Shown piece after piece: positions 5,787 through 38,361 of a stretch of DNA of 64,000 bases. The notes below the pieces were generated by a model. That model worked only from the letters and a program-made list of their open reading frames with translations. It was not told where the DNA came from and made no database searches. Source of the DNA: Bugula neritina (lineage: Eukaryota; Animalia; Bryozoa); the NCBI GenBank assembly GCA_964035545.1, contig OZ037768.1, forward strand, positions 16,351,875 to 16,415,874, written 5' to 3'. The stretch's first letter is position 1. Every line of letters starts with the position of its first letter. A program made the translations under genes and the position numbers.

Positions 5787-6343
5787 TGTAGTAAACTGTG
5801 GGTTCTGAATGCAACTAGTGCCTACATGCTCTAGAAAGAATAAGCCAAGTATTTGAGTACAAATGAGGATAACCTTTATTGTATCAGATACAGCTCATGT
5901 GGTCCTACTACCAGCGAGCTCCAGTAGTAGTCTGAACTACACTGGAACTCGCTGGCTTTTATATACAAGCGAGACAAAGACATTCCTTTGTTGCCGAGAT
6001 CGGGGTTCCGAAATGCCGAATATCGGCATTTCGGGACTCCGAAATGCCGAAACGCCGATTTTCGGCATATCGGCATTTCGGAAGACCGAAATGCCGATCT
6101 CAGCAACAAAGGACACACACAAAAGAAAGCAACATTAGTAAAAGAAATATTACATAACTTCAGAATGCGTATTTCAGTAAAATTACATTATGTTGAGCTT
6201 TAACCGTAATTACCATACTTAGGCATTAGCAAGCTAACTTACTTAACTATAATTACAGAATTAAGAATGATACGCAACAGTATTTATAATATACTGTTGC
6301 ACGCTGTTATTTCGAAACTAAAAGAGGGTGAAAATCCATTACA
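5787..6343 (-). mobile_element. Solo LTR, family 2, copy A
   Basis: TG...CA ends with 4-bp TSD ATAC (5783-5786, 6344-6347); homologous in inverted orientation to 37843-38361; TATATAAAAG on the minus strand near 5956-5965. Confidence 0.85.
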
Positions 6344-8477
6344 ATACTATAAGTACAATATTAGCTGTATAACATTAACCATAAGTGCAAGTTATAAGTA
6401 TTACTATTCGTCTATTACTATTAGTATAACCTATAACTATGTCTATATAAGTATAAGTAAATGTTATTTTAATTAAATTATGTAACTATTCTAATGCTTA
6501 TAGTTATACTGAGTTGATATTCATATTTATTGACTTTGAGGGTGTTACTTATTATTGCTTTTAATCACCAATCCATTGCTAGAACTAACTCGCCCAAGAC
6601 TTAAGGCTAAGGTAACTGTGGAGGTATCGCACTCACAGTCACACTCACTGTGGTTATCAGTATGTGTGTCAATATCAGTATCACTATGACTATAACTATA
6701 AGTTTAACAATATAAGTCCTGAGATGACTAAGAGTAAGTCCAATAGCCTATTAAGTGACCTTGTATGTCGAGAAATGTTACTGTGATACTAATAGTAATA
6801 GTATATGTATTACTGTAATACTAATAGCCTAAGCCTACTACAATACTAATACTGTAATAAACAATAGTAATACCTATAATAATTTATAGTTTTCATTTTG
6901 TTACTAGTGATTTAAGTTATAATAAGATTAAAGAATTAGATTGATAATTTAGATAATTGATATAAATATTAGATCATAATTGTAAGGATATTTGTTAAAA
7001 TACTTACTAAATCTGTGAAACTGAACAGAACTAGGACCCAAACTGTCTTATAATTAAATTTCTTTCTCAATATGATCTTTATCCTTTATACTTTTTGTTT
7101 TGTAACGTTCTCGATACAGTTGACTTTTTATTTATTTATTTTGTTTATAAAATCGTATGCGCCACGCCAATGTTTAGTTCTAGACTTTAGAGAACTACAA
7201 ATTACAGTTAAAGTTGAGAATAGGGCGTTGTTTTAAGTTGCTTGTCTTGAGCAAATGTGTTGCTAAATGTTTATTCCACAAATAGATTTCATCAACAACT
7301 GTAGTTATAAAAATATGCTCACTATTGAGCGTCATATTTCTTTTACATGTGCAGTCCAACAATGTGAAATATGCAAAGCACTTTGCCGAATATCACGGGT
7401 GTAACAGTGGCATACTAGTTCTAAACACTAACTGTGACCCTTGAAATGTCGAATCTACTTGCACACTGGCACACTAATGCCTCAAAAATGAAATTTCATG
7501 AAGTTGCACTAGAAACAAAATTTGCCAGTAATACCGAAATATTTTTGAAGATTTATTTTACATGAACAATGTTGGACATTTTATTTCCTCCATATTCTTT
7601 AGCAAAGATCACAGAAACAAATAGTTTCTTTACAGTAGTAGCTTGAACATATCGTTTCAATTAATGGAGGGGTGCCTAATTTGCTAAAATTGATAAACAA
7701 TGCATAATCATCTCCTTTTTTTTCAGGCGACATGTATGAAATTTACCCAATAGCTTGTTTTTATGCCCCATAGTTTTGTATTTATTCATAATCTGTGGGA
7801 TTTGGTAAACTGATTTTATATAAAGTTTTTGGAATAAATACTTTAGAAAAAGTTGCTTTGCATGGTATAGTTTAAGCACAATGAAATTGGTAGCTTTAGA
7901 GTCAGGAAATTGCAATACTTGGACTGGTTCATATTGTAACTGTAAATGTACTATAATTATATAGCTTGGCTGTCTATAATATGTGTAAGGTGGCAGTGTA
8001 ATTCAATGTTCTATGCAGCACGTAGATCATTACTCAATGAATGGGTATGTGTATAGAAACTTTTCTTTGCAATTCTAAATTGAAGTTATTGGGCACACAG
8101 ATGCTCCATGCTTCATCCAGACACTAGTCGCTGAAGGGTACTGCGTTTTAATTAATACTAGCTTATTGGATATTTTTAAAACTCGCCCACTGCAAAAGTA
8201 AAGCAAATGGCCTGTTTCTGTTTTGTGGCCACTTTTCTTCCAAAATAATTGTTTAGAGGGTTGTATTCCTATTAGTAAAACAATGCTACATATCTATAGG
8301 GTCTTGATAATTAATCTACATGCTCCAGCATATTACTAATTTGTCATTCAATTTGACAGGCGTGTAGACAAATAACATTCTGAAGTTATGTATTTGCTGT
8401 ATTTTTTAGCTTTTACAATCATTACCTATTTCAAGTAGTCTCCAAATCCATATCTGTACCACAGCTGGCTAATCAAA

Positions 8478-16980: not shown

Positions 16981-17435
16981 AGTATATTCAAGTGTGAGTT
17001 TAAAAACAATTGTTAAAATATTTGTTGTAGTGGCGTTGTAATAGTCATTGTTGTACTTGTTGTAGTAGTTGTTGTGGTTGTTGTAGTGGTTTTAGAAAAA
17101 AGCCTATTAGTGAACATAAACTATCTAATGCTTCACATAGTCAAGGTTTTGCTTCTTTGTTTAGCAATACTTAAAACAATCATTGTTGTAGATCTGATAT
17201 CCTGTTTCATACAATTTTGTTACTATCAAATATATTTTCTAACTGAAACAATGCTCTTGAATCTTTTTAGGACATGTTATGTTATACACCTTGCTGTCAA
17301 TGATGGTTATTCCACTGTACTATATACACTAGTAGTAGATGTGTATTGACTATTTTACGACAGGTTCAACATTTTATTGAGATAAATGTAATTATAATAT
17401 CCTTGCATGGATTTCCATTTGTTTCAGTGTCAGTC

Positions 17436-19845
17436 ATGGATACATCCGTCTCGTATAGCAAGTATGGCCAAGGAAAGCAAAGAGTAGAGGAGTCCTCGTC
17501 TTCGTATGACCATGGCTATAATTCACAGAACAGATACTACAGTAACTCTGTCACGTCGGATGCCTTTAGTGATATTAGTTTTGACCCGTACAATAACAAA
17601 ACCCATCTGCCGGCCAACTATGGGTATAGTAACTCTCACTTTGTGCCTGATGGTGGCAGACGCCAAATACTAGATGTTCAACAAATGCCTCTAAATGATG
17701 GAAGGCAGAGAATGAGGGATAACTCTGTAGATTCAGACGCTTATGGTGGCCACAGAGCGCCGAGTATAATCAGCAGTGTTGGTAGAGATGCTGATGTGGA
17801 ATCAATCACTAGTCAGCAAACGTACAGCACCAGCACATCGTTTGCTACTGAAAGTAGTGCGTTTAGTTATGACCAATACAGATATCACGGAGAGCTGTAT
17901 AAGCCCGTTGCAGCTCCTCGAAAAGTAAACTCTCAAGTTAAAAAGCTGTTCGGTGAGATTCACCCTCGGATGTTGAGGCCAGAAGATAAACCAATTGAAG
18001 AGAGTGGAGAAGAAACAGAAGACAGTGTGAGCATTGTGTCTTCGGTTGCTCCTAGGCCTGCGCCAAGGGCTAGTATGAGAATGAGTAGGAGGTCCATTGA
18101 GTTTATGGAGGATGAGGCAATTCGACTTGAAAATTCTCTTCTTAAAAGCATTTTGCGGAGTGCTGTTATGTCCGCAAGACGTGATGCTAAAGGAAACAAA
18201 ATGATAGTTAGATTTGAGCACGTCGATAAATATGCGGATTCTAAGCCACGAAGAGACATCACAGACTATTCGGATATTGACAGCGATCATGGTAAAAACT
18301 CTAAAAAGCACAAAACCAAGCAAAAAGACGTTTGGAGTCATGTTGCACCAGTTGGTCCAAAGCCAGCTAGAAATTCCCGATCAAATTCACACAGATCAAG
18401 CAGCAGACGTTCATCATCTGCTGACAGGTCCCGACAGACGAGTAGATCTGGTAGCAAGAGAAGGTCATCTTCCGCCTCCAGCATTTCAAGGAGATCTCAT
18501 CGATCCTCAGTCAAAACCAATAAACACTCTCAATCTGATTCTAAACCCGGTGTGACTGCCAATGGTGGGGGTGAAGTAGCTATACAAGTAAGTATGTAGT
18601 TCTACTAGCAGGAATAAAATTCTACTCATTCACTCGACTGGAACTGAGTTTAGAGTCTGTTGATAAATAATGATAAATAATCTGTAGGCGAGGTTGTTGC
18701 GGATAATTTACAACTCATCAAACATTCATCACTGAAAATGTTTTATTAAAAGACCATATATAGTGGCAAACCATTGTCACTGGTCGAGGTATAGTAAATA
18801 GAATAGGAAGCAACGATAATTTTGCAAATCTATTCTCAGTCACTAATCACCCTGTATATGGAAACGGATGCATAATGAAGAGCTACAGATTGTTTTAATT
18901 GATAATTACGGCCAAGCATATTATGCAGTTAAATTAACTATTTCATTGATTCTAGATTAGCCCATCTATACTCTCTCCAAGATTTGCTTATAAATACCAT
19001 TACTAAACTGGCAGCAATAATAAACTGTTTTCTTCCCATCCTCAATTTTCTTTATTTGAAATACTTAATAGGTAACAAAGTTACACATAATAATTTTTAT
19101 ACTAAATTTTTGTCTGTTTAAGATGTGGTGTAAACAAGTGTTAAATCTTGAGCACTTTTAAAAATAATAAAAAACTTGCACACATTCCAAAAATGTCATG
19201 CTAGGTGCACGTATATATACATGTATAGACTTTTGATCTATAATTTTTGGTTTAATATTTTTGATTGAAACATTGTTGCTTTATTTGGCAGTCACTCAGC
19301 TTCTCATTTGCCAAGGTTTTACTGAAAATTTTGCTGTTTGAAAAAGTGAAATGTTGAACCTACTTAAAATGGTGATGACGAAGTTTATATGTTTAGATTT
19401 TGAAGTTGTCTTCTAAATGTAGAGTTATTTTGAATTTGGTTAAAAGTTAATAGCTGAAACCACTGAATTAAGGTTATATTTCAATGGCTGAAACACACAG
19501 AGCAAGAAATAGCCATGACCAACACCCATTATATTACAATTCCTCACAGCTGTGGATAATGTTATATGGGATGTTGCATTTTGTACATTGGTATACCATA
19601 TTGCGAGTAGTTTCACTCAAACACGGATTTGACAATAAGCTTCACTTTGTTTTGTTTAGATGCCTGGAGAAGAAGGAAAGAAGCCACAAAGCATGTTTGG
19701 TGACATAAAACAATCAAGCAACAGCAGTGGAGGTATCTGTTCAGACCCCCAGAAGGTGCTGAAGTGGTCACTGATTATAGGCGTTCCCTCTGTATTGCTG
19801 ATTATAGTCATCATTGTAGTTGTTGTTGTTCTTCAATCCAATTAG
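17436..19845 (+). CDS. Uncharacterised, largely disordered S/R-rich protein with a single C-terminal transmembrane helix (about 445 aa)
   Basis: Exon 17436-18587 (CAA|GTAAGT) joined in phase 0 to 19660-19845 (ttag|ATGCCT); ends WSLIIGVPSVLLIIVIIVVVVVLQSN*. Confidence 0.8.
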
Positions 19846-30050: not shown

Positions 30051-30224
30051 CTATGACTATCTGCTATTCGTTCCTATTGTACTAGTACTACTACTACTAC
30101 ACTACTACTATTACTAGTACAATAACAGATAACTTCTACTTTTAGCACTCCTAGTCTACTACTAGTTCAATAACAGATAAGTTCTAGTTCTACTTCTAGC
30201 TCTGCTACTACTAGTGAGTAGTAG

Positions 30225-30529
30225 TGTTATAATTTTCAGATTTAGGGTTGATGTGCTATCCAGAGAGTCTATTTATTTACTATAGAACTGCACCAGGATA
30301 AGTCGAGTGAACGAGTATATTTTACACACAATTATACATTATAAAAACGATACATTATTTCCAAACAAGTTACACATCTAATCTATTTCACACTCTAGCT
30401 TCGACTGAGTTAGCAGCGGGAAACTACAATTGCTGCTAACTATCAACTACGCTAATTGGCTATCCATTGTTCCGGGTCAATTACGTGACCCTACATGTTG
30501 TGCTGCTGGTAGTTCCACGAACCACCACA
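30225..30529 (-). repeat. 3' LTR (305 bp)
   Basis: Identical to 37432-37736; minus strand has CCAAT, an Inr-like TCAGTC and AATAAA. Confidence 0.97.
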
Positions 30530-30540
30530 CCGCCCCCACC
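30530..30540 (-). other. Polypurine tract
   Basis: GGTGGGGGCGG on the minus strand immediately before the 3' LTR. Confidence 0.8.
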
Positions 30541-30819
30541 AGCAGAAAGCCATCTTTCTGATATATACATAAAAAAAAACATTCATTAGTAACCGCATAC
30601 ATCAGTGGACAAAATAATACATAATATACAGGACGAGACATAATAATAGACAGAGTCATTATAACGATCCGTTGCATACAAGTGGCCAGCTGTAGATAGA
30701 CGAGGAATACTAGCTAGCTGTGGTGTTAGACAGGGGATAACCTGTTAAGCAGTCAAACATTTGCATGACATCTTGGTTCCTCCCGAGATGTGAAGTTGCG
30801 GAGTATTCTGGGTAGCCAA

Positions 30820-31641
30820 CTAGAGTCCTTGTTGGGCACGCCGGTGTTTGGCTTGGCATGTACGCAGTTTCCGTTTCATACGGCATACGGATCCCTTTAG
30901 CTGGAAGAGTCCTGTGGTAGTGTTAAGTAGATCTGGTGCCAGCTGGGTGAACTCTTCTTGTAATCGTAGGAGGCGTTCTTCTACTGTAGCCAGGCGTACT
31001 GGGTCCGGGGACGGTGTCCGTCTGCGGCGCAAGGGTGGACTGGGGGACCTGGTTCGTCTCTTCGCCGGTGTGGGGGAGATCTCTCCTTCTTCTGGATATG
31101 TAATTTCCTCGGGGGTGTATGTAATTTGAGGACGGTCAGACACCAACGGGGATTGTTGGCGGGCGTTGTCTAACACACGTTGGAACCCCGAGGACAGAAC
31201 GGCTAACAACATGGCCTTCTTCACCAGAGGTCGTATAAGTGTGAGGAACTCCGGGTATAGCTTAGCGTCGACCACGTAGTTTTCTCCAGGGAAACAGCCC
31301 GCCGCTCGGTGTCTGGTGACGGGGTAGGGATACACATCATTGTACCCGCAGGGGCAGAATGTTAGTAGGAGATGAGCATTGACGTGTAGTTTAAGGGAGC
31401 GGTGAGAGGCGCAATCTTCACCACAGATCTGGCATCTCGTTCGTCCTCTGGACCCCCAGGCCGTTTCTATTTCTTCCTCTGTTTGTGGAGACACCCACCG
31501 CCAACGGCGGCGTAGTGGCTCAGGCCGATCACCACTAGCACACTCCTCCGGATACGGAGCGGGAAGTGTTCTATCCCGTACCCTGGTTGTAGCGGGTCGA
31601 GTGTAATCTGAAAAAGTTTCAACAGTGTTAATACAGTACAC
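30820..31641 (-). CDS. Retrotransposon ORF3: C2H2 zinc-finger, Arg/SP-rich, coiled-coil accessory protein (probably spliced; coding exon 31607-30820)
   Basis: 273-codon ORF starting at GTG; CQIC-x12-HVNAH finger followed by CPC...H-x4-C; KRRTRSPSPPLRRRRTPSP; C-terminal heptads; acceptor ttttcag| at 31608. Confidence 0.8.
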   Translation of the reverse strand: MYCINTVETFSDYTRPATTRVRDRTLPAPYPEECASGDRPEPLRRRWRWVSPQTEEEIETAWGSRGRTRCQICGEDCASHRSLKLHVNAHLLLTFCPCGYNDVYPYPVTRHRAAGCFPGENYVVDAKLYPEFLTLIRPLVKKAMLLAVLSSGFQRVLDNARQQSPLVSDRPQITYTPEEITYPEEGEISPTPAKRRTRSPSPPLRRRRTPSPDPVRLATVEERLLRLQEEFTQLAPDLLNTTTGLFQLKGSVCRMKRKLRTCQAKHRRAQQGL

Positions 31642-31921
31642 TGCTGTGTTGTCAGCTTGAACAGCTTGGCAACTCCTAATTCAGTTACCTCGTAGAGATT
31701 AATGGTAGTGAATAGTCAGATAGAACACGTATTGCAATGAGATTATAAAAATCTCTAAGTCAAACTGAGTTCTTACTACGGTATTTCACTAACCTATCTC
31801 CAGCTCGATTGACTCAGTGAGTCAGAGCTGAGCGATGCAATCTAGTTTCGTATTAAGATATAGTTAACTCACCCCACGATCTGTTGTCGTAAGACATACT
31901 GAATGTGTGAAATGGTTTGAA

Positions 31922-32512
31922 CTACTGCTTAGAAACACGTCTACTCCTGACTGCATCAGCGTATGAAAAGATCGAGCAACGTGGTTGGGGTGCGTGATTA
32001 AGACTTTGTGCACCCGGCGGATGAATTTTGTTTCTATTTCCGCCGATACAAAAGTTGATTTTTCCGTGGTGTTGACAACTCCCACATTTGCTCGATTCTT
32101 TTCTCGTACGGTTTTCCCCTAGACTTTCATGTGTGCCGCTTTTAACGCAGTCACATACGAAGTCCTTCAAGTATGCGGGGGGTTGCCTCGTACGCTGTCC
32201 CCTTTCTAGGGGGGGTGACACGCTTGCCGGTTCGTTAGTAGGGGCCTCTAATGGCGTCTCTACTTCACCGTTAGCGGTCACCTCTTCTTGTTCTCCGGAT
32301 GGAGCCCCTCCCTCCGTGGGGGTTTGCACTTCCGGAACCGGCTCGGTTTCTGGAAGTGATGGAATTAGACTTGGCGGTGGCGGACACGCTTCTGTTGACA
32401 AAAGCTGCCGCTCCTCGCTCACCAAGTTTTCTTCCCGCGGTATGATCACTTCGTATTCAGGTCCATGCCGCCGTCGCCCGCGCGTTGTTGTTTGCCTCCT
32501 GGGCTCTAACAA
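31922..32512 (-). CDS. C-terminal tail of Pol/integrase, out of frame at a C12 run
   Basis: Pro/Glu-rich linker then RGQRTRQPPAYLKDFV, a motif typical of Gypsy integrase C-termini; would be in frame with pol if the run were C10 or C13. Confidence 0.7.
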   Translation of the reverse strand: MLEPRRQTTTRGRRRHGPEYEVIIPREENLVSEERQLLSTEACPPPPSLIPSLPETEPVPEVQTPTEGGAPSGEQEEVTANGEVETPLEAPTNEPASVSPPLERGQRTRQPPAYLKDFVCDCVKSGTHESLGENRTRKESSKCGSCQHHGKINFCIGGNRNKIHPPGAQSLNHAPQPRCSIFSYADAVRSRRVSKQ

Positions 32513-35500
32513 CGGGGGGGGGGGGCTTCTCCCACTCCGCCGGGGCTAGCCCAATACGGTTTCAAGCGAGACTCATTCTGGATAGACACCTGTCCTGAGC
32601 GCTCAATCTTGTACGTATGATTGGGCATAGCCTCGACGACCACGTAGGGGCCTACGAACTTAGGCTTCAGCTTATCAGCCTGTCCGCGACGCCTACGGTA
32701 ATTGACCATCCACACCTTATCTCCCGTTTGATAGAGAGGTGGTTCATCGGAATCTTCGTGCCGCACCTTCCACTGCTGTTGACGCAGTATATCGTGTGCG
32801 GCCTTCATCCGTTCCACTAGTTCACTGGCATACTCGTGAACCAAGTTGTCTTGCTCTGGAACGTGGTAGGTGAGATGGTCAGGGACACGAGTCTCTCTCC
32901 CGAGCATCAAGAGGTTTGGGGTCTCACCAGTACTGGTGTGTGGGGTGCTACGGTATGCACGCATGACTTGTGGCAATACCGTATCCCATTCCTCTTGACC
33001 TCGTCCAAGGAGGAGACTCCGGAGTGCATCACCTAGCATCCGGTTGTTGCGCTCCACCACCCCGTTACCTTGAGGGTGGTAGGGGGTGGTCCTGCTCTGA
33101 TTTACTCCCCAGAGGTGGCAAAGGTCGCTCATCAGTTGAGACTGGAATTGAGCGCCTTGATCAGAGTGTATCTGTTCGGGAAGCCCAAAATAACAGAATA
33201 CATGTTGGTCTAGCGCCCTGGCCACTGTTGGGGCTGATGCATCTGGGATAGCCAGAGCATCCGCCCACCTAGTAAAGTGGTCGGTTAGTACTAGGATCCA
33301 ATTATTGCCTCTGGGGGTCAGGGGCATGGGTCCGACCAGGTCTACAGCGACTACTTGCCAGGGCCTACCAGCATATAGCCTCCGCCGTCCTGCCTCACCA
33401 GGGGGGCGGCTATGCTTACTGGCCTGGCAGATCTCACACTGTTTGACTCTGAGCCGGACGTCACGCTCCATCTGCGGCCAATACCACCGGAGTCGTAATT
33501 TGGATATCACTCTCTTAACCCCTGCGTGGGCCTGTTTGTGAGTATCCCAAATCAACTCACGGCGGATGGCTGTGGGGCAGACTACCCTCTTCCTTTCCGA
33601 GTGTCTGCCGCTGGCAGCTAGAGAGATGGTTAGTAACCCATCCTGCCCGATCCGCAGCGAGTCCCAACGCTGACAGTATAGCCGGAACTCGGCGCATCCC
33701 TGTCGTATGCGTTCCTCGCTGGGTCGTCGCCCTTCCCTTTTGGCCCGGTATATGTCTGCCACGACTCCAGGCAGCTCTTCTTGGAGCTTCTTCAGCTCTC
33801 GAACATTACCGGCCAGTACAGGGTTGGCGCGGAGGTTTTGTACATCCTCCGGGGACTCATCAACTCTTTGCCTGAGTTGACCTTGATCCCAGTCAAACGG
33901 TGCTCCGTGATGAGCCAGCGTCTCCAACTCGCATCGCGGGGGACCTCCATCCCTCCTCTCGATGTTGAGACACTGTTTGCAACCTCCGTCAGGTCGGCGA
34001 CTCAACCCATACGCATTGCTGTGTCTCTTGCCCGGTCGATGTTCGATCCGGTATGAGAATTCAGCTAGGATTTCGAGCCACCGGGCGACCTGACTAGAGG
34101 GCTCTGCTCTCCTGCACAACCAGATCAGCGAGGCATGATCCGTACGCAGCCGGAACTTCCTGCCATATAGGTATGGTCTGAAGTGCTTCACTGACTTGAT
34201 TACTGCCAGCAGCTCCTTGCGGGTAGTGCAGTAATTTCGTTCAGCGGGTGAGAGAGACTTGCTGTAGTAGGCTACTACTACCTCTCGGCCTTCCTGCACT
34301 TGTGACAGCACAGCGCCAACATTTTGGTCACTGGCGTCCGTGTCCAGGATGTACTCCAGAGTGGGGTCTGGGTAGGCCAAGATGGGCGCCGTTAGTAGGC
34401 AGCCCTTTAGGCGGTCGAACGCTTCTTGCTCGACTGGAGTCCACTGCCACGTCACTCCCTTTGCGGTGAGCCGGTTTAACGGCTGGGCTATGCCGGCAAA
34501 GTCTGGTATGTATTGCCTGTAATACCCTACCAGCCCCAAGAAAGCCCGGAGTCCGGTCAAGTCTTGGGGGGTGACCCAGTCTTCTACTGCCCGTACCTTT
34601 TCGGGATCCGTTGCCACGCCGTTTCGACCGACAACGTGCCCCAGATACTTGACCTCCGGCTGCAATAGAGCGCACTTGGAAGGTTTGAGCTTAAGACCGG
34701 CACCTCGGAGTCTCTCGAAAACCTCCTGCAGACGACTGATATGTGTCTCGAAGTCTGGAGAGATTACGATGACATCATCGAGGTAGACCAGCAGCGTCTT
34801 CCAATGGAGTCCGCTAAGGACTTGTTCCATCAGCCTCTGGAAGGTGGCTGGGGCGGAGGTTAACCCGAAAGGCAGCACCTTCCACTTCCACAAACCGTCC
34901 CGTGTGATAAACGCCGCTTTCTCTTGGGCGTCGGGACTCAGAGGAACTTGCCAATAGCCGCTTAGCAAGTCTAACGTACTGAAGTACTTGCTGCCGGCTA
35001 GGGCGTCCAATGACTCGTCAATACGAGGTAGAGGGTAGGCGTCCTGTATGGTTACGCTATTGAGTTTGCGATAGTCCACACAGAACCGCCAACTGCCGTC
35101 TTTCTTCCGGACCAGTACGACTGGCGAGCTCCACGCACTATGGGCGGGCTCTATCAGTCCCCGGTCCAGAAGATCCCGTACTTGTCGGCTAACCTCCTTC
35201 TCTTTCTCCGGCCCCAGCCTGCGTGTGGGCTGCCGGACAGGGACTGTCCCTGCAGTCAGCGGTATTTCGTGTCTGACAATTCCAGTCAGTCCCACGTCAT
35301 GCTCTCCGCTGCTGAACACATCACCGTAGTCGCGTAGTAACTTAGCCATAGCTTGGCGTTCTCTGTTACTCGCGCAGCCGCCACTGGCTGTTTCGTATAA
35401 CTCCCGGAGATGTGTTGGGACTGCCCCCCGTCCCTGAATAGGGCACTGAGGGGGTGCCTCCGTCGCATCACCCAGCGACGGGCCTACGTCTCCCTCCTGA

Positions 35501-36558
35501 ACAGAGTGAAAACGGCCCAGCATCGACCCAGCCGGGAGCTTGATAGGCTCGGTAAAGGGGTTGACACACTGCACTAAGATCTCCCCTTGCTCAGTCAGCT
35601 GATTCAGACTGCTGGCAAGTTGGATCTTTTCGTGCGCGCCTTCAACCACCCCGAGTCCAGAGATCCGGCTACTATTCACCCTGCAGTGAATGGTAGCCCG
35701 GGAGCGGCCTGGTATGATACGGTTGCGTACCACTTGCACACCTCCCACTAAAGGGCGGCCGAACTTGTCGACGCAGGCGAGTTCACGCCCGGACATCATC
35801 ATTGCAGATCTGCTAAAATCTATGTGACATCCGTGCCGTTTAAGGAACGGCATCCCGAGGATAGCATCCTCCTTGAGCTGACTGACGATGAACGTCTCTT
35901 GGATCGTTTGATCACGGACTCGTCCCGTCAGCTCAATTATGCCATAGAAGGGAAGGCACGACCCGTCAGCGAGGGTGCCGTATTCCCCTTCGTATGCTTC
36001 CATCTCGCCCCTGACCCTAGTACTGAGGGTGTCGAAGAGTTGGCGGCTTAAGAGGTTTGTGGTACAGCCCGAATCAATGAGGAAAGTAACAGCTTTGCCT
36101 TCCAGTTTACCGGGCAAGAAATAGCTGTTCCCATGGGGCTGCACCTGAACTCTCCCTTCAGGCCTTACTCTCGCAGGGAGTACCTCCCTCGCTTTGAGTC
36201 GCGAAGGAGGTCTCTTAGGGCGGTGGTAGGTAGGCCTCGGGGGTGCCGAGGCTAGATTCTCAGCTACCTTTGTGGGCTCCCATCCAGATTCTTGGACTTG
36301 TAGCCCTGTGAATCTGTTGTGAAGGGGCATAGAAAAGGCAGCTGCGGGGCGAAGCCCCTTGCTGGTCCGTCGTGGCTGTTGCCACTGTTGGTTGCCAGTA
36401 CGCGGTACCCGTCTGGGTGACCTGCGTTTCTTCTTCCCTGGAGGTTTCATCGTCGGCCCGCGGAAGGTGGGAACATCTGCGGGCCGCGGTAGTTTAACCC
36501 CTGATTTAGGAAGGGACAATATCGGCGGAAATGTCCTTGATTTCCGCACTCCCAGCAA
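32506..36558 (-). CDS. pol: Pol polyprotein (aspartic protease, RT, RNase H, integrase)
   Basis: FLIDSGC (protease), LPFGL and YLDD (RT), DTDASD (RNase H), HKQAH..CEIC zinc finger, VAVD/HSDQG/ERNN DDE core, KFVGPY (GPY/F). Confidence 0.97.
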   Translation of the reverse strand: MLGVRKSRTFPPILSLPKSGVKLPRPADVPTFRGPTMKPPGKKKRRSPRRVPRTGNQQWQQPRRTSKGLRPAAAFSMPLHNRFTGLQVQESGWEPTKVAENLASAPPRPTYHRPKRPPSRLKAREVLPARVRPEGRVQVQPHGNSYFLPGKLEGKAVTFLIDSGCTTNLLSRQLFDTLSTRVRGEMEAYEGEYGTLADGSCLPFYGIIELTGRVRDQTIQETFIVSQLKEDAILGMPFLKRHGCHIDFSRSAMMMSGRELACVDKFGRPLVGGVQVVRNRIIPGRSRATIHCRVNSSRISGLGVVEGAHEKIQLASSLNQLTEQGEILVQCVNPFTEPIKLPAGSMLGRFHSVQEGDVGPSLGDATEAPPQCPIQGRGAVPTHLRELYETASGGCASNRERQAMAKLLRDYGDVFSSGEHDVGLTGIVRHEIPLTAGTVPVRQPTRRLGPEKEKEVSRQVRDLLDRGLIEPAHSAWSSPVVLVRKKDGSWRFCVDYRKLNSVTIQDAYPLPRIDESLDALAGSKYFSTLDLLSGYWQVPLSPDAQEKAAFITRDGLWKWKVLPFGLTSAPATFQRLMEQVLSGLHWKTLLVYLDDVIVISPDFETHISRLQEVFERLRGAGLKLKPSKCALLQPEVKYLGHVVGRNGVATDPEKVRAVEDWVTPQDLTGLRAFLGLVGYYRQYIPDFAGIAQPLNRLTAKGVTWQWTPVEQEAFDRLKGCLLTAPILAYPDPTLEYILDTDASDQNVGAVLSQVQEGREVVVAYYSKSLSPAERNYCTTRKELLAVIKSVKHFRPYLYGRKFRLRTDHASLIWLCRRAEPSSQVARWLEILAEFSYRIEHRPGKRHSNAYGLSRRPDGGCKQCLNIERRDGGPPRCELETLAHHGAPFDWDQGQLRQRVDESPEDVQNLRANPVLAGNVRELKKLQEELPGVVADIYRAKREGRRPSEERIRQGCAEFRLYCQRWDSLRIGQDGLLTISLAASGRHSERKRVVCPTAIRRELIWDTHKQAHAGVKRVISKLRLRWYWPQMERDVRLRVKQCEICQASKHSRPPGEAGRRRLYAGRPWQVVAVDLVGPMPLTPRGNNWILVLTDHFTRWADALAIPDASAPTVARALDQHVFCYFGLPEQIHSDQGAQFQSQLMSDLCHLWGVNQSRTTPYHPQGNGVVERNNRMLGDALRSLLLGRGQEEWDTVLPQVMRAYRSTPHTSTGETPNLLMLGRETRVPDHLTYHVPEQDNLVHEYASELVERMKAAHDILRQQQWKVRHEDSDEPPLYQTGDKVWMVNYRRRRGQADKLKPKFVGPYVVVEAMPNHTYKIERSGQVSIQNESRLKPYWASPGGVGEAPPPRC
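36434..36498 (-). promoter_or_regulatory. -1 programmed ribosomal frameshift signal (gag-pol)
   Basis: G_UUA_AAC heptamer (36498-36492) in the gag frame, 5-nt spacer, stem CGGCCCGC/GCGGGCCG; loop UUCCC could pair with downstream GGGAA. Confidence 0.75.
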
Positions 36559-37400
36559 AAACTGACTGTTTCTCCCTGTGGCGGCGCCGATGGCCGCATG
36601 GGCTCAGGGGCGGTACTCACTGGGTTTTGTGGTGTCAGTGTTGCTATCAGCTTGGCTAGCATGTCCGTCAGTTGAGTGACTTTTGATGCCGTCGCCAACT
36701 GGGACACGGCAGCCGCGGCGGGGGTTTCCTCCCCTTGTCCCGCGGCCGTGTCTGCGCGGTCTATCTCCACTTGGCGGGAGCTTCCGCGACTTTTATGCAT
36801 TTGATTAGCTAGGAGGTAAGCTTCCCCCTCAGTCAGAGCATCTTCAACGGTGGTGACTCCCCTAGCTAGAAACTGGTGGTGGAGACCCAGATCGTCGACA
36901 GATGCTATGAAAGCCTCGAGGGTGTACCTCTCGCGGTTGACTGGGGGCAAGTCGCTGTACGCGATCTGTGCCAGCTTCATGACCGCGGCGGCATGCTCCC
37001 GCAGCGGGGTGCGGGGATCACGCCGCAACCTCTGCAATCGGGCCCTGGCATCTGTAGCAGAGAGGCCAAAGCGGGCCCGCAGAGAAGCAAAGATATTATC
37101 AATGTCTACACCCAGCCCATAGGGCTTGGCTTTGTCCATCAATGCCATTCTAAGCTTCAGCAAGGCCACCCTAGGGGGCCACTGAGCGACGTCCATTACG
37201 TCGCTAAACTCTTGGATAAATTGTTCCACCTCCTCTTCACCCGTGAAGGTGGGCGCCTTTAACCTGTAGCGGTCCTCAGCTAGTTCTCGCGGAACCCTTC
37301 GCTCTTCTACTACATGGTTAACAGGCATTGTCTCTACAGCATTGTCTCTACGCTCACCTTCAATTGCCGGTGGTTGAGTTCCAGCATTTTCAGTCTCCAT
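36447..37400 (-). CDS. gag: Gag (capsid plus CCHC nucleocapsid knuckle), 317 aa
   Basis: LKAPTFTGEEEVEQFIQEF capsid-type start; CWECGNQGHFRRYC zinc knuckle; overlaps pol, which is in the -1 frame. Confidence 0.93.
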   Translation of the reverse strand: METENAGTQPPAIEGERRDNAVETMPVNHVVEERRVPRELAEDRYRLKAPTFTGEEEVEQFIQEFSDVMDVAQWPPRVALLKLRMALMDKAKPYGLGVDIDNIFASLRARFGLSATDARARLQRLRRDPRTPLREHAAAVMKLAQIAYSDLPPVNRERYTLEAFIASVDDLGLHHQFLARGVTTVEDALTEGEAYLLANQMHKSRGSSRQVEIDRADTAAGQGEETPAAAAVSQLATASKVTQLTDMLAKLIATLTPQNPVSTAPEPMRPSAPPQGETVSFCWECGNQGHFRRYCPFLNQGLNYRGPQMFPPSAGRR

Positions 37401-37412
37401 CTTGGATGCACT

Positions 37413-37430
37413 ATCCCACTGCTGCCACCA
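37413..37430 (-). other. Primer-binding site complementary to the tRNA-Leu 3' end
   Basis: TGGTGGCAGCAGTGGGAT, 1 nt after the 5' LTR; its complement ATCCCAC(T)GCTGCCA-CCA matches the metazoan tRNA-Leu(AAG/TAG) 3' end as I recall it. Confidence 0.85.
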
Positions 37431-37431
37431 C

Positions 37432-37736
37432 TGTTATAATTTTCAGATTTAGGGTTGATGTGCTATCCAGAGAGTCTATTTATTTACTATAGAACTGCAC
37501 CAGGATAAGTCGAGTGAACGAGTATATTTTACACACAATTATACATTATAAAAACGATACATTATTTCCAAACAAGTTACACATCTAATCTATTTCACAC
37601 TCTAGCTTCGACTGAGTTAGCAGCGGGAAACTACAATTGCTGCTAACTATCAACTACGCTAATTGGCTATCCATTGTTCCGGGTCAATTACGTGACCCTA
37701 CATGTTGTGCTGCTGGTAGTTCCACGAACCACCACA
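37432..37736 (-). repeat. 5' LTR (305 bp)
   Basis: Identical to 30225-30529 and followed by the PBS. Confidence 0.97.
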
Positions 37737-37842
37737 GTAGTACCTGTACTACTACTACGTCTACTACTACTAGGTCTAGTAGTAGTACTACTAATACTAC
37801 TACTAGTACTACTACTACTAGTACTACTACTACTAGTACTAC

Positions 37843-38361
37843 TGTAATGGATTTTTACCCTCTATTAGTTGCGAATTAACAGCGTGCAACAGTATATTAT
37901 AAATACTGTTGCGTATCGTTATTAACTCTGTAATTATAGTTAAGTAAGCTAGCTTGCTAATGCCTAAGTATGGTAATTACTGTTGAAGCTTTCAACATAA
38001 TGTAATGTTATTGAAATACGCATTCTGAAGTTATGTAATATTTCTTGTACTAATGTTGCGTATCAATTTTTATGCTGTAATTGTGTAGTAGATTTTTGCA
38101 TGTACTTGTTTCCGGTTGCGAGATCGGCATTTCGGGCCTCCGATCTCGGCAACAATGAAAAAGCACTGTATCTTGTTGTATATAAAAGCCAGCGAGCTCC
38201 AGTGTAGTTCAGTCTACTACTGGAGCTCACTGGCAGAGGACCTTCACTATTATATATAATTCAACTAAATAAAAATTTCTTCAACTATACAATACATCTT
38301 GTTCTCTCTAACAAAGAGTATGTTCAGGCACTAGTTCTATTCAACCCACAAAAATATCACA
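37843..38361 (+). mobile_element. Solo LTR, family 2, copy B
   Basis: TGTAATGG...ATATCACA with 4-bp TSD CTAC (37839-37842, 38362-38365); TATATAAAAG near 38179, TCAGTC at 38209, AATAAA near 38268; homologous to 5787-6343. Confidence 0.87.

Follow-up and report, generated by a model that had tools for sequence, protein, structure and literature searches.

A zinc-finger gene downstream of pol in a Ty3/Gypsy retrotransposon of Bugula neritina is probably expressed by splicing from the start of gag

Introduction

How can a retrotransposon gene be translated if its frame offers no start codon ahead of the protein domain that it encodes? The question is raised by ORF3, a frame downstream of pol in an LTR retrotransposon of the bryozoan Bugula neritina, within a stretch of 64,000 nt that was analysed in full and is referred to here as the window. 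A sequence-only reading of this DNA had pointed out that ORF3 has no in-frame ATG before its zinc finger, and the earliest is indeed codon 157 of the stop-to-stop frame, past the fingers. The same reading had proposed that ORF3 needs splicing, and that its start is supplied by an ATG mini-exon placed shortly after the end of pol and joined to ORF3 by removal of a short intron.

Third genes of other LTR retrotransposons provide several precedents. In the idefix subclade, splicing links env to a Gag peptide (10.1101/2023.08.03.551782), and env of Tor3a from Oikopleura uses donors near the gag start, while that of Tor3b/4b is described as made from unspliced transcripts with an internal promoter in pol or the spacer (PMC4402516). 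CERV, a protein of the C. elegans element Cer1, is made from a spliced RNA and has its N-terminus in common with Gag, and the Cer1 genome RNA retains working splice sites and needs CERV for its export (PMC10309623).

Results

The element is a recent Ty3/Gypsy insertion

ORF3 belongs to a Ty3/Gypsy LTR retrotransposon spanning 30225-37736 on the minus strand, in surrounding DNA that is AT-rich and animal-like. No second copy was found within the 64,000-nt window. Its frame and coding genes are as follows.

37432..37736, minus strand: 5' LTR, 305 bp, TG...CA
30225..30529, minus strand: 3' LTR, 305 bp
37737-37740 and 30221-30224: 4-bp flanking duplication CTAC, in a TAC repeat and hence weak evidence
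37413..37430, minus strand: primer-binding site, the same but for one difference in the relative L001
30530..30548, minus strand: polypurine-tract-like G-rich stretch, adjoining the 3' LTR
36447..37400, minus strand: gag, 317 aa, with one CCHC knuckle visible in the sequence
32506..36603, minus strand: pol, with protease, RT, RNase H, integrase and an SH3-like C-terminal domain
31922..32545, minus strand: pol tail, a frame of 207 aa that in L001 runs on from pol without a break

The features looked for in a Ty3/Gypsy element, namely LTR ends, primer site, polypurine tract and target duplication, were all found, the duplication being weak, and pol has the order protease-RT-RNase H-integrase expected of this group. 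Both LTRs are identical over 305 bp with TG...CA ends, which indicates that the element moved recently. We take the primer-binding site to be of the tRNA-Leu type. The gag and pol frames overlap by 157 nt (36447-36603), with pol in the -1 frame, and pol is parted from its tail where the frame breaks within 12 consecutive C (32514-32525), through either a mutation or an assembly error. The insertion lies in a TAC/TAG simple repeat (30080-30224 and 37737-37845); a neighbouring repeat at 37831-38236 has an inverted copy at 5908-6355, and a single site cannot show a target preference. Outside the element there is a stop-to-stop frame of 431 aa (17304-18599, plus strand).

ORF3 encodes a protein with two zinc sites

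30820..31607, minus strand: ORF3 exon from the shared acceptor, encoding a two-zinc-site domain, a proline-rich linker and a long C-terminal helix
31294..31434, minus strand: zinc ligands C-x2-C...H-x3-H and then C-x-C...H-x4-C, each kept in 50-61 of 61 aligned sequences
30826..30984, minus strand: predicted 53-residue helix, coiled-coil like, with a basic end

That ORF3 is coding is supported by its 72 near relatives, by a profile search with 117 hits (23 of them at E<=1e-30) and by a folded domain of about 130-136 residues modelled at pLDDT 93, C-terminal of which lie a disordered proline-rich linker and the 53-residue helix. The first site is a C-x2-C-x12-H-x3-H finger, whose ligands C39, C42, H55 and H59 of the modelled domain are present in 57-61 of the 61 sequences, and its profile matched C2H2 fingers of solved structures with a best E of 2.9e-6. 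The Pfam model zf-C2H2_4 was matched in six of the 61 members; Pfam holds no family for ORF3, and the window domain gave 0 hits there. The best structural match was weak (Z 3.9, rmsd 3.0 over 57 residues), and the second site is non-canonical. Foldseek returned nothing at E<=0.001 in the PDB or viral libraries for either the whole protein or the domain, and VIA-align nothing at Z>=5, which is no proof of a new fold; the best value in the ESM Atlas, 0.89, was to C2H2 clusters and serves as a lead only.

A gene placed after pol invites comparison with env. Neither a signal peptide, a membrane anchor nor envelope homology was found in ORF3, and no env family was matched in Pfam. The highest hydropathy over 19 residues, 1.5, corresponds to an amphipathic helix in the model, and 3 of 50 relatives reach 1.8. 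ORF3 as an Env or an sORF2-like fusogen was rejected, given a conserved set of zinc ligands and no membrane segment. Judged by its sequence, ORF3 is no Env: it is soluble, with tandem zinc fingers and a long helix.

Named homologues occur in Watersipora subatra (P0214/XP_067940964.1 and P0308/XP_067940963.1) and in Bugula neritina itself (P0317/KAF6040922.1). In Watersipora the gene, on a chromosome-scale record, contains the finger module twice and ends in a helix-like C-terminal part; it is possibly a domesticated copy.

A probable short intron precedes ORF3

31873..31897, minus strand: ATG mini-exon of the sequence-only reading, 25 nt, phase 1, in the pol-tail frame, ending GGG/GTGAGT
31608..31872, minus strand: short intron, 265 nt, GTGAGT...TTTTTCAG, with its 5' GTG at the same base and distance in the relative P0026

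The structure that had been described is present in the DNA. A 25-nt phase-1 ATG exon with a strong donor (31897-31873, GGG/GTGAGT) begins 24 nt past the pol-tail stop, in the same frame as the tail, and is followed by a 265-nt sense-strand GT-AG intron (31872-31608) ending ...CTTTTTCAG/AT at a phase-1 acceptor, 31608/31607; the joined frame is open for 270 aa with no internal stops. The mini-exon donor ranked second among the 440 GT sites of the element with an approximate donor matrix. A donor this good arose in 382 of 5000 dinucleotide shuffles of the 262-nt spacer, and 57 of the 5000 had an equally good donor that closes an open phase-1 exon starting with ATG, the region for both counts having been picked after the fact. 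The acceptor ranked 27th of 575 AG sites on a crude score, a modest value; the case for it rests on relatives.

One relative, P0026, with an ORF3 48% identical to that of the window, reads through this intron: it starts V-S and has the D of the acceptor as residue 89. Because all 323 proteins of the set begin with M, V or L, an initial V signals a GTG start, which puts the GTG of P0026 265 nt upstream of its acceptor, the distance also found in the window. A frameshift-aware alignment set this GTG on window position 31872 with a score of 87.5, against a maximum of 5.8 over 20 shuffles, and crossed 18 gap bases with a net of zero; GTG was imposed at codon 1, a choice that favours this anchor, and the method shows only in-frame, open copies. 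From this comparison the short intron is probably real, not a chance arrangement, and the donor at 31872 is probably conserved.

In a fuller version of the sequence-only reading, an internal promoter in the pol tail would yield a short RNA, and the mini-exon spliced over the 265 nt would be the main source of ORF3. The rank of the donor, the shuffles and the P0026 alignment (with codon 1 fixed) agree with this, as do an initiator-like TCAGT that ends directly 5' of the ATG and the precedent of Tor3b/4b env, which has internal promoters within pol or in the spacer (PMC4402516). However, none of the 79 ORF3 proteins has a mini-exon-like N-terminus, and the sole join among them uses the gag donor described below. 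A TATA box is absent from the 150 nt upstream of the mini-exon, an RNA beginning at TCAGT would have a leader no longer than about 5 nt, the start context of the ATG is weaker than that of gag, and a lone conserved GTG can reflect shared ancestry. We regard this route as an improbable main source of ORF3. A sigma-70 promoter scan found nothing, the bacterial-type model being irrelevant to a eukaryote. The acceptors 31924, 31921 and 31898 were considered as entries to the mini-exon and rejected, their phase being wrong for the gag donor.

The best donor lies at the start of gag

37358..37400, minus strand: gag start exon, from the ATG, 14 codons and a G, probable first coding exon of an ORF3 mRNA
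31608..37357, minus strand: predicted long intron, 5750 nt, from gag donor to ORF3 acceptor, absent from the natural protein P0023

The top-scoring of the 440 GT sites, with the same approximate matrix, was AAG/GTGAGC at 37358/37357, 43 nt into gag and in phase 1. Joined to the acceptor at 31607 it gives an open frame of 276 aa, and a donor as good was seen in 66 of 5000 shuffles of the first 151 nt of gag. The proposal that ORF3 needs splicing thus holds for this copy as far as the 31608/31607 acceptor is concerned, while a need for the mini-exon is not implied, a higher-scoring donor being available at the gag start.

The predicted product has a natural counterpart. The N-terminus of P0023 is identical at 14 of 14 residues to the start of the gag protein P0127, and at 13 of 14 to eight further gags; it passes from this gag-like arm to D-H-T-R and then follows ORF3 from the acceptor on. 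At the join the E-G of gag is replaced by E-D, exactly as a phase-1 splice predicts. P0023 is the sole joined form found in nature, one of 79 ORF3 proteins (72 relatives and 7 cluster members), and a search found no shorter proteins carrying its junction. It lies on a contig of 5320 nt, which exceeds the approximately 1.8 kb that a spliced unit would span, and we therefore suppose that the spliced RNA was reverse-transcribed and integrated there. A genomic deletion at a shared AG is a possible though unlikely origin of the join. Two other internally deleted ORF3 forms, P0047 and P0215, were rejected as splice products, their joins lying off the splice sites.

To assess conservation of the gag donor, all 120 gag hits that were listed were aligned blind to any motif, and the N-terminal arm is covered by 68 of them; splice-site conservation was read here at the protein level, with codons inferred. 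The three donor codons, preceded by an arm of 9-17 codons, encode E in 58, G in 60 and E in 68 of these 68 gags, against 25-41 of 68 at flanking positions, and E-G-E is the best-conserved part of the arm. The exceptions at the middle codon are five S and one R, with which a GT is still possible, and two D, with which it is impossible. This conservation could instead serve the Gag protein. At the other end of the intron, the acceptor boundary is visible in 21 of the 79 ORF3 proteins, and 20 of these 21 read F/L-S-D, L-S-G or L-L-D, which fit (Y)nCAG or TAG in phase 1. Of the conservation that had been called for as a check, the acceptor boundary is kept in these proteins and the 31872 donor probably so (P0026).

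The sequence-only reading had also held that an in-frame ATG in other copies, with no conserved splice signals, would speak against splicing. Of 40 scored relatives, 37 have a Met ahead of the finger and after the acceptor position, a count inflated by gene calling, and the lack of an ATG is thus peculiar to this subfamily; the splice signals, as read from proteins, are conserved in relatives. One could suppose that ORF3 starts at its own Met on an unspliced internal transcript, that the present copy is defective and that P0023 is a chance deletion. These Met residues, even as inflated by the gene callers, and the existence of other internally deleted proteins (P0047, P0215) would suit such a view, which we nonetheless consider very improbable: similarity among ORF3 relatives begins at the acceptor, some 17 codons ahead of those Mets, the P0023 join matches both splice sites to the base, and the identical LTRs speak of a recent move.

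The finger module is fused to Pol in a relative

L001 is a near-complete relative, with an RT 78% identical and the same primer site. In L001:1694-6928 the Pol, the tail, the zinc-finger pair and the helix form a single frame of 1744 aa; the finger module is fused to Pol and no splice is needed there. Of 420 donors in L001 the best, CAG/GTATGT, lies in the 5' leader at position 540; the tail has an acceptor-like AG near 5990, and on these sites L001 may also make a spliced form. Other proteins have related arrangements. Three cluster members, P0218, P0309 and P0310, carry the pol-tail motif some 35 residues ahead of the finger domain and in the same frame, through a deletion or another splice. 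P0227, P0235 and P0238, of a distant subfamily, have a longer open N-terminus with an LDLELD...RVPYK-like motif resembling the L001 tail, and this N-terminus suggests an intermediate state.

Scans with ORF3 of viral, metagenome and prokaryote genome contigs gave no confirmed loci, and scans of viral contigs with pol, gag and RT gave none. An RT scan found 78 metagenome and 5 genome loci, and the finger module accompanied RT in L001 only (1/83), the others being mostly short or distant.

These forms bear on the short intron, together with one further candidate exon.

31873..31950, minus strand: speculative 78-nt cassette exon, running to the 31872 donor from a candidate phase-1 acceptor at 31951/31950 and including the tail stop in frame

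The mini-exon shares the frame of the pol tail and lies 8 codons beyond the stop of that tail, and its ATG may therefore be incidental. The 31872 donor might then close the Pol frame, as a relic of, or a route to, a Pol-finger fusion like that of L001, or might end the 78-nt cassette, which would tune ORF3 output. The 1744-aa frame of L001, the in-frame tail motif of P0218, P0309 and P0310, and the cassette acceptor candidate, which ranked 6th of 575 AG sites and lies 78 nt before the donor, are in keeping with this, and it is compatible with splicing from the gag donor. On the other hand, in this copy a stop precedes the donor and the frame is broken before the tail, and splicing would strip the short intron from progeny, while P0026 and others keep it. 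We consider this role of the 31872 donor unlikely, if less so than the mini-exon route.

Discussion

From its splice sites and those of its relatives, ORF3 is probably made from an LTR-driven subgenomic RNA spliced from 37358 to 31607, with the short intron representing a second, minor donor and the cargo being a soluble tandem zinc-finger protein. A single RNA transcribed from the 5' LTR would, when unspliced, serve as genome and gag-pol mRNA, and when spliced at the gag donor would encode a 276-aa finger protein headed by 14 Gag residues. Splicing would presumably be incomplete, which is the usual solution of retroelements. The 265-nt intron would then reflect a second donor onto the same acceptor, used by an internal transcript, by a Pol-linked form as in L001, or by a regulatory cassette. 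Retention of a sense-strand intron in an element that moves through RNA had seemed to call for a special explanation. It is no paradox, such introns being normal in retroviruses and in several LTR retrotransposons (PMC10309623, PMC4402516). The two consequences drawn from it, regulated splicing and a subgenomic RNA, are both implied by splicing from the gag donor; the mini-exon as main route is not.

The logic of splicing from the gag start is already known. Insect errantivirus env (of the idefix subclade, and also of ZAM and springer variants) and Tor3a env resemble ORF3 as post-pol third frames without their own start, and they are spliced, as ORF3 probably is, to a Gag peptide or to a donor near the gag start (10.1101/2023.08.03.551782, PMC4402516). 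ORF3 differs from these env genes in having no signal peptide or membrane segment, in its zinc fingers and in a second phase-1 donor onto its acceptor. CERV, like ORF3, is an accessory product of a Ty3/Gypsy element and combines a cysteine finger with a coiled-coil region; it begins with the N-terminus of Gag, as ORF3 probably does. By its description CERV is set apart by a length of 517 aa, by being encoded in 5 exons that all lie inside gag, and by having a C4 loop together with a G-protein-like domain (PMC10309623). ORF3, in contrast to CERV, is encoded by one downstream exon, has C2H2 and C2HC sites and comprises about 270 aa. The internal promoter of Tor3b/4b offers a likeness only to the putative mini-exon route, and the Tor3b/4b transcripts are unspliced (PMC4402516).

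At the protein level, the tandem C2H2 fingers of SALL, ZBTB and Kaiso match the first finger by profile (E 2.9e-6) and the two-site arrangement weakly (Z 3.9). Unlike them, ORF3 has a second site C-x-C...H-x4-C, and its pair lies within a domain of about 130 residues without a Pfam family. In foamy viruses an internal promoter drives Tas/Bet, which would match the mini-exon route. The chromodomain of chromoviruses is a module added to the C-terminal end of integrase, and is named in PMC2774666. It resembles the finger module of L001, which closes the Pol frame after integrase; the fold is different, and in the window family the module is a separate gene.

By analogy with CERV and Rev, each made from fully spliced RNA, ORF3 could be a nuclear nucleic-acid-binding regulator of the expression or RNA export of its own element, a function to which we give slightly less than an even chance. 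The fusion to integrase in L001 suggests a role in integration targeting, and ORF3 might, though we hold this to be rather unlikely, be an integration-targeting module or a partner of integrase. Still more tentatively, and with the doubts greater than the support, an integrase-tail finger module, Pol-fused in L001, may be turning into a regulatory gene of its own that is expressed by splicing. Two phase-1 donors would serve its LTR-driven and its internal-promoter or Pol-linked forms, spliced RNA would retrotranspose as mini-elements of 1.8 kb, and a Rev/Tas-like accessory gene would have arisen independently, out of a new zinc-finger family.

No description of a zinc-finger cargo in the env position, of its fused and split forms or of the two donors was found in the literature searched, including PMC2774666, PMC8556966, PMC8220671 and 10.1101/2025.03.14.642691; Repbase, subscription journals and supplements were outside the search, and Repbase or supplements may already contain an annotation of this kind of ORF. 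What looks new is an env-position gene for an unnamed two-zinc-site protein, met with in two forms, a probably spliced third gene and a C-terminal fusion to Pol. For animal LTR retrotransposons, regulatory accessory proteins such as CERV are known in few cases, and the ORF3 family may offer a second, whose natural fused and split forms make the origin of an accessory gene testable by comparison of genomes and RNA-seq.
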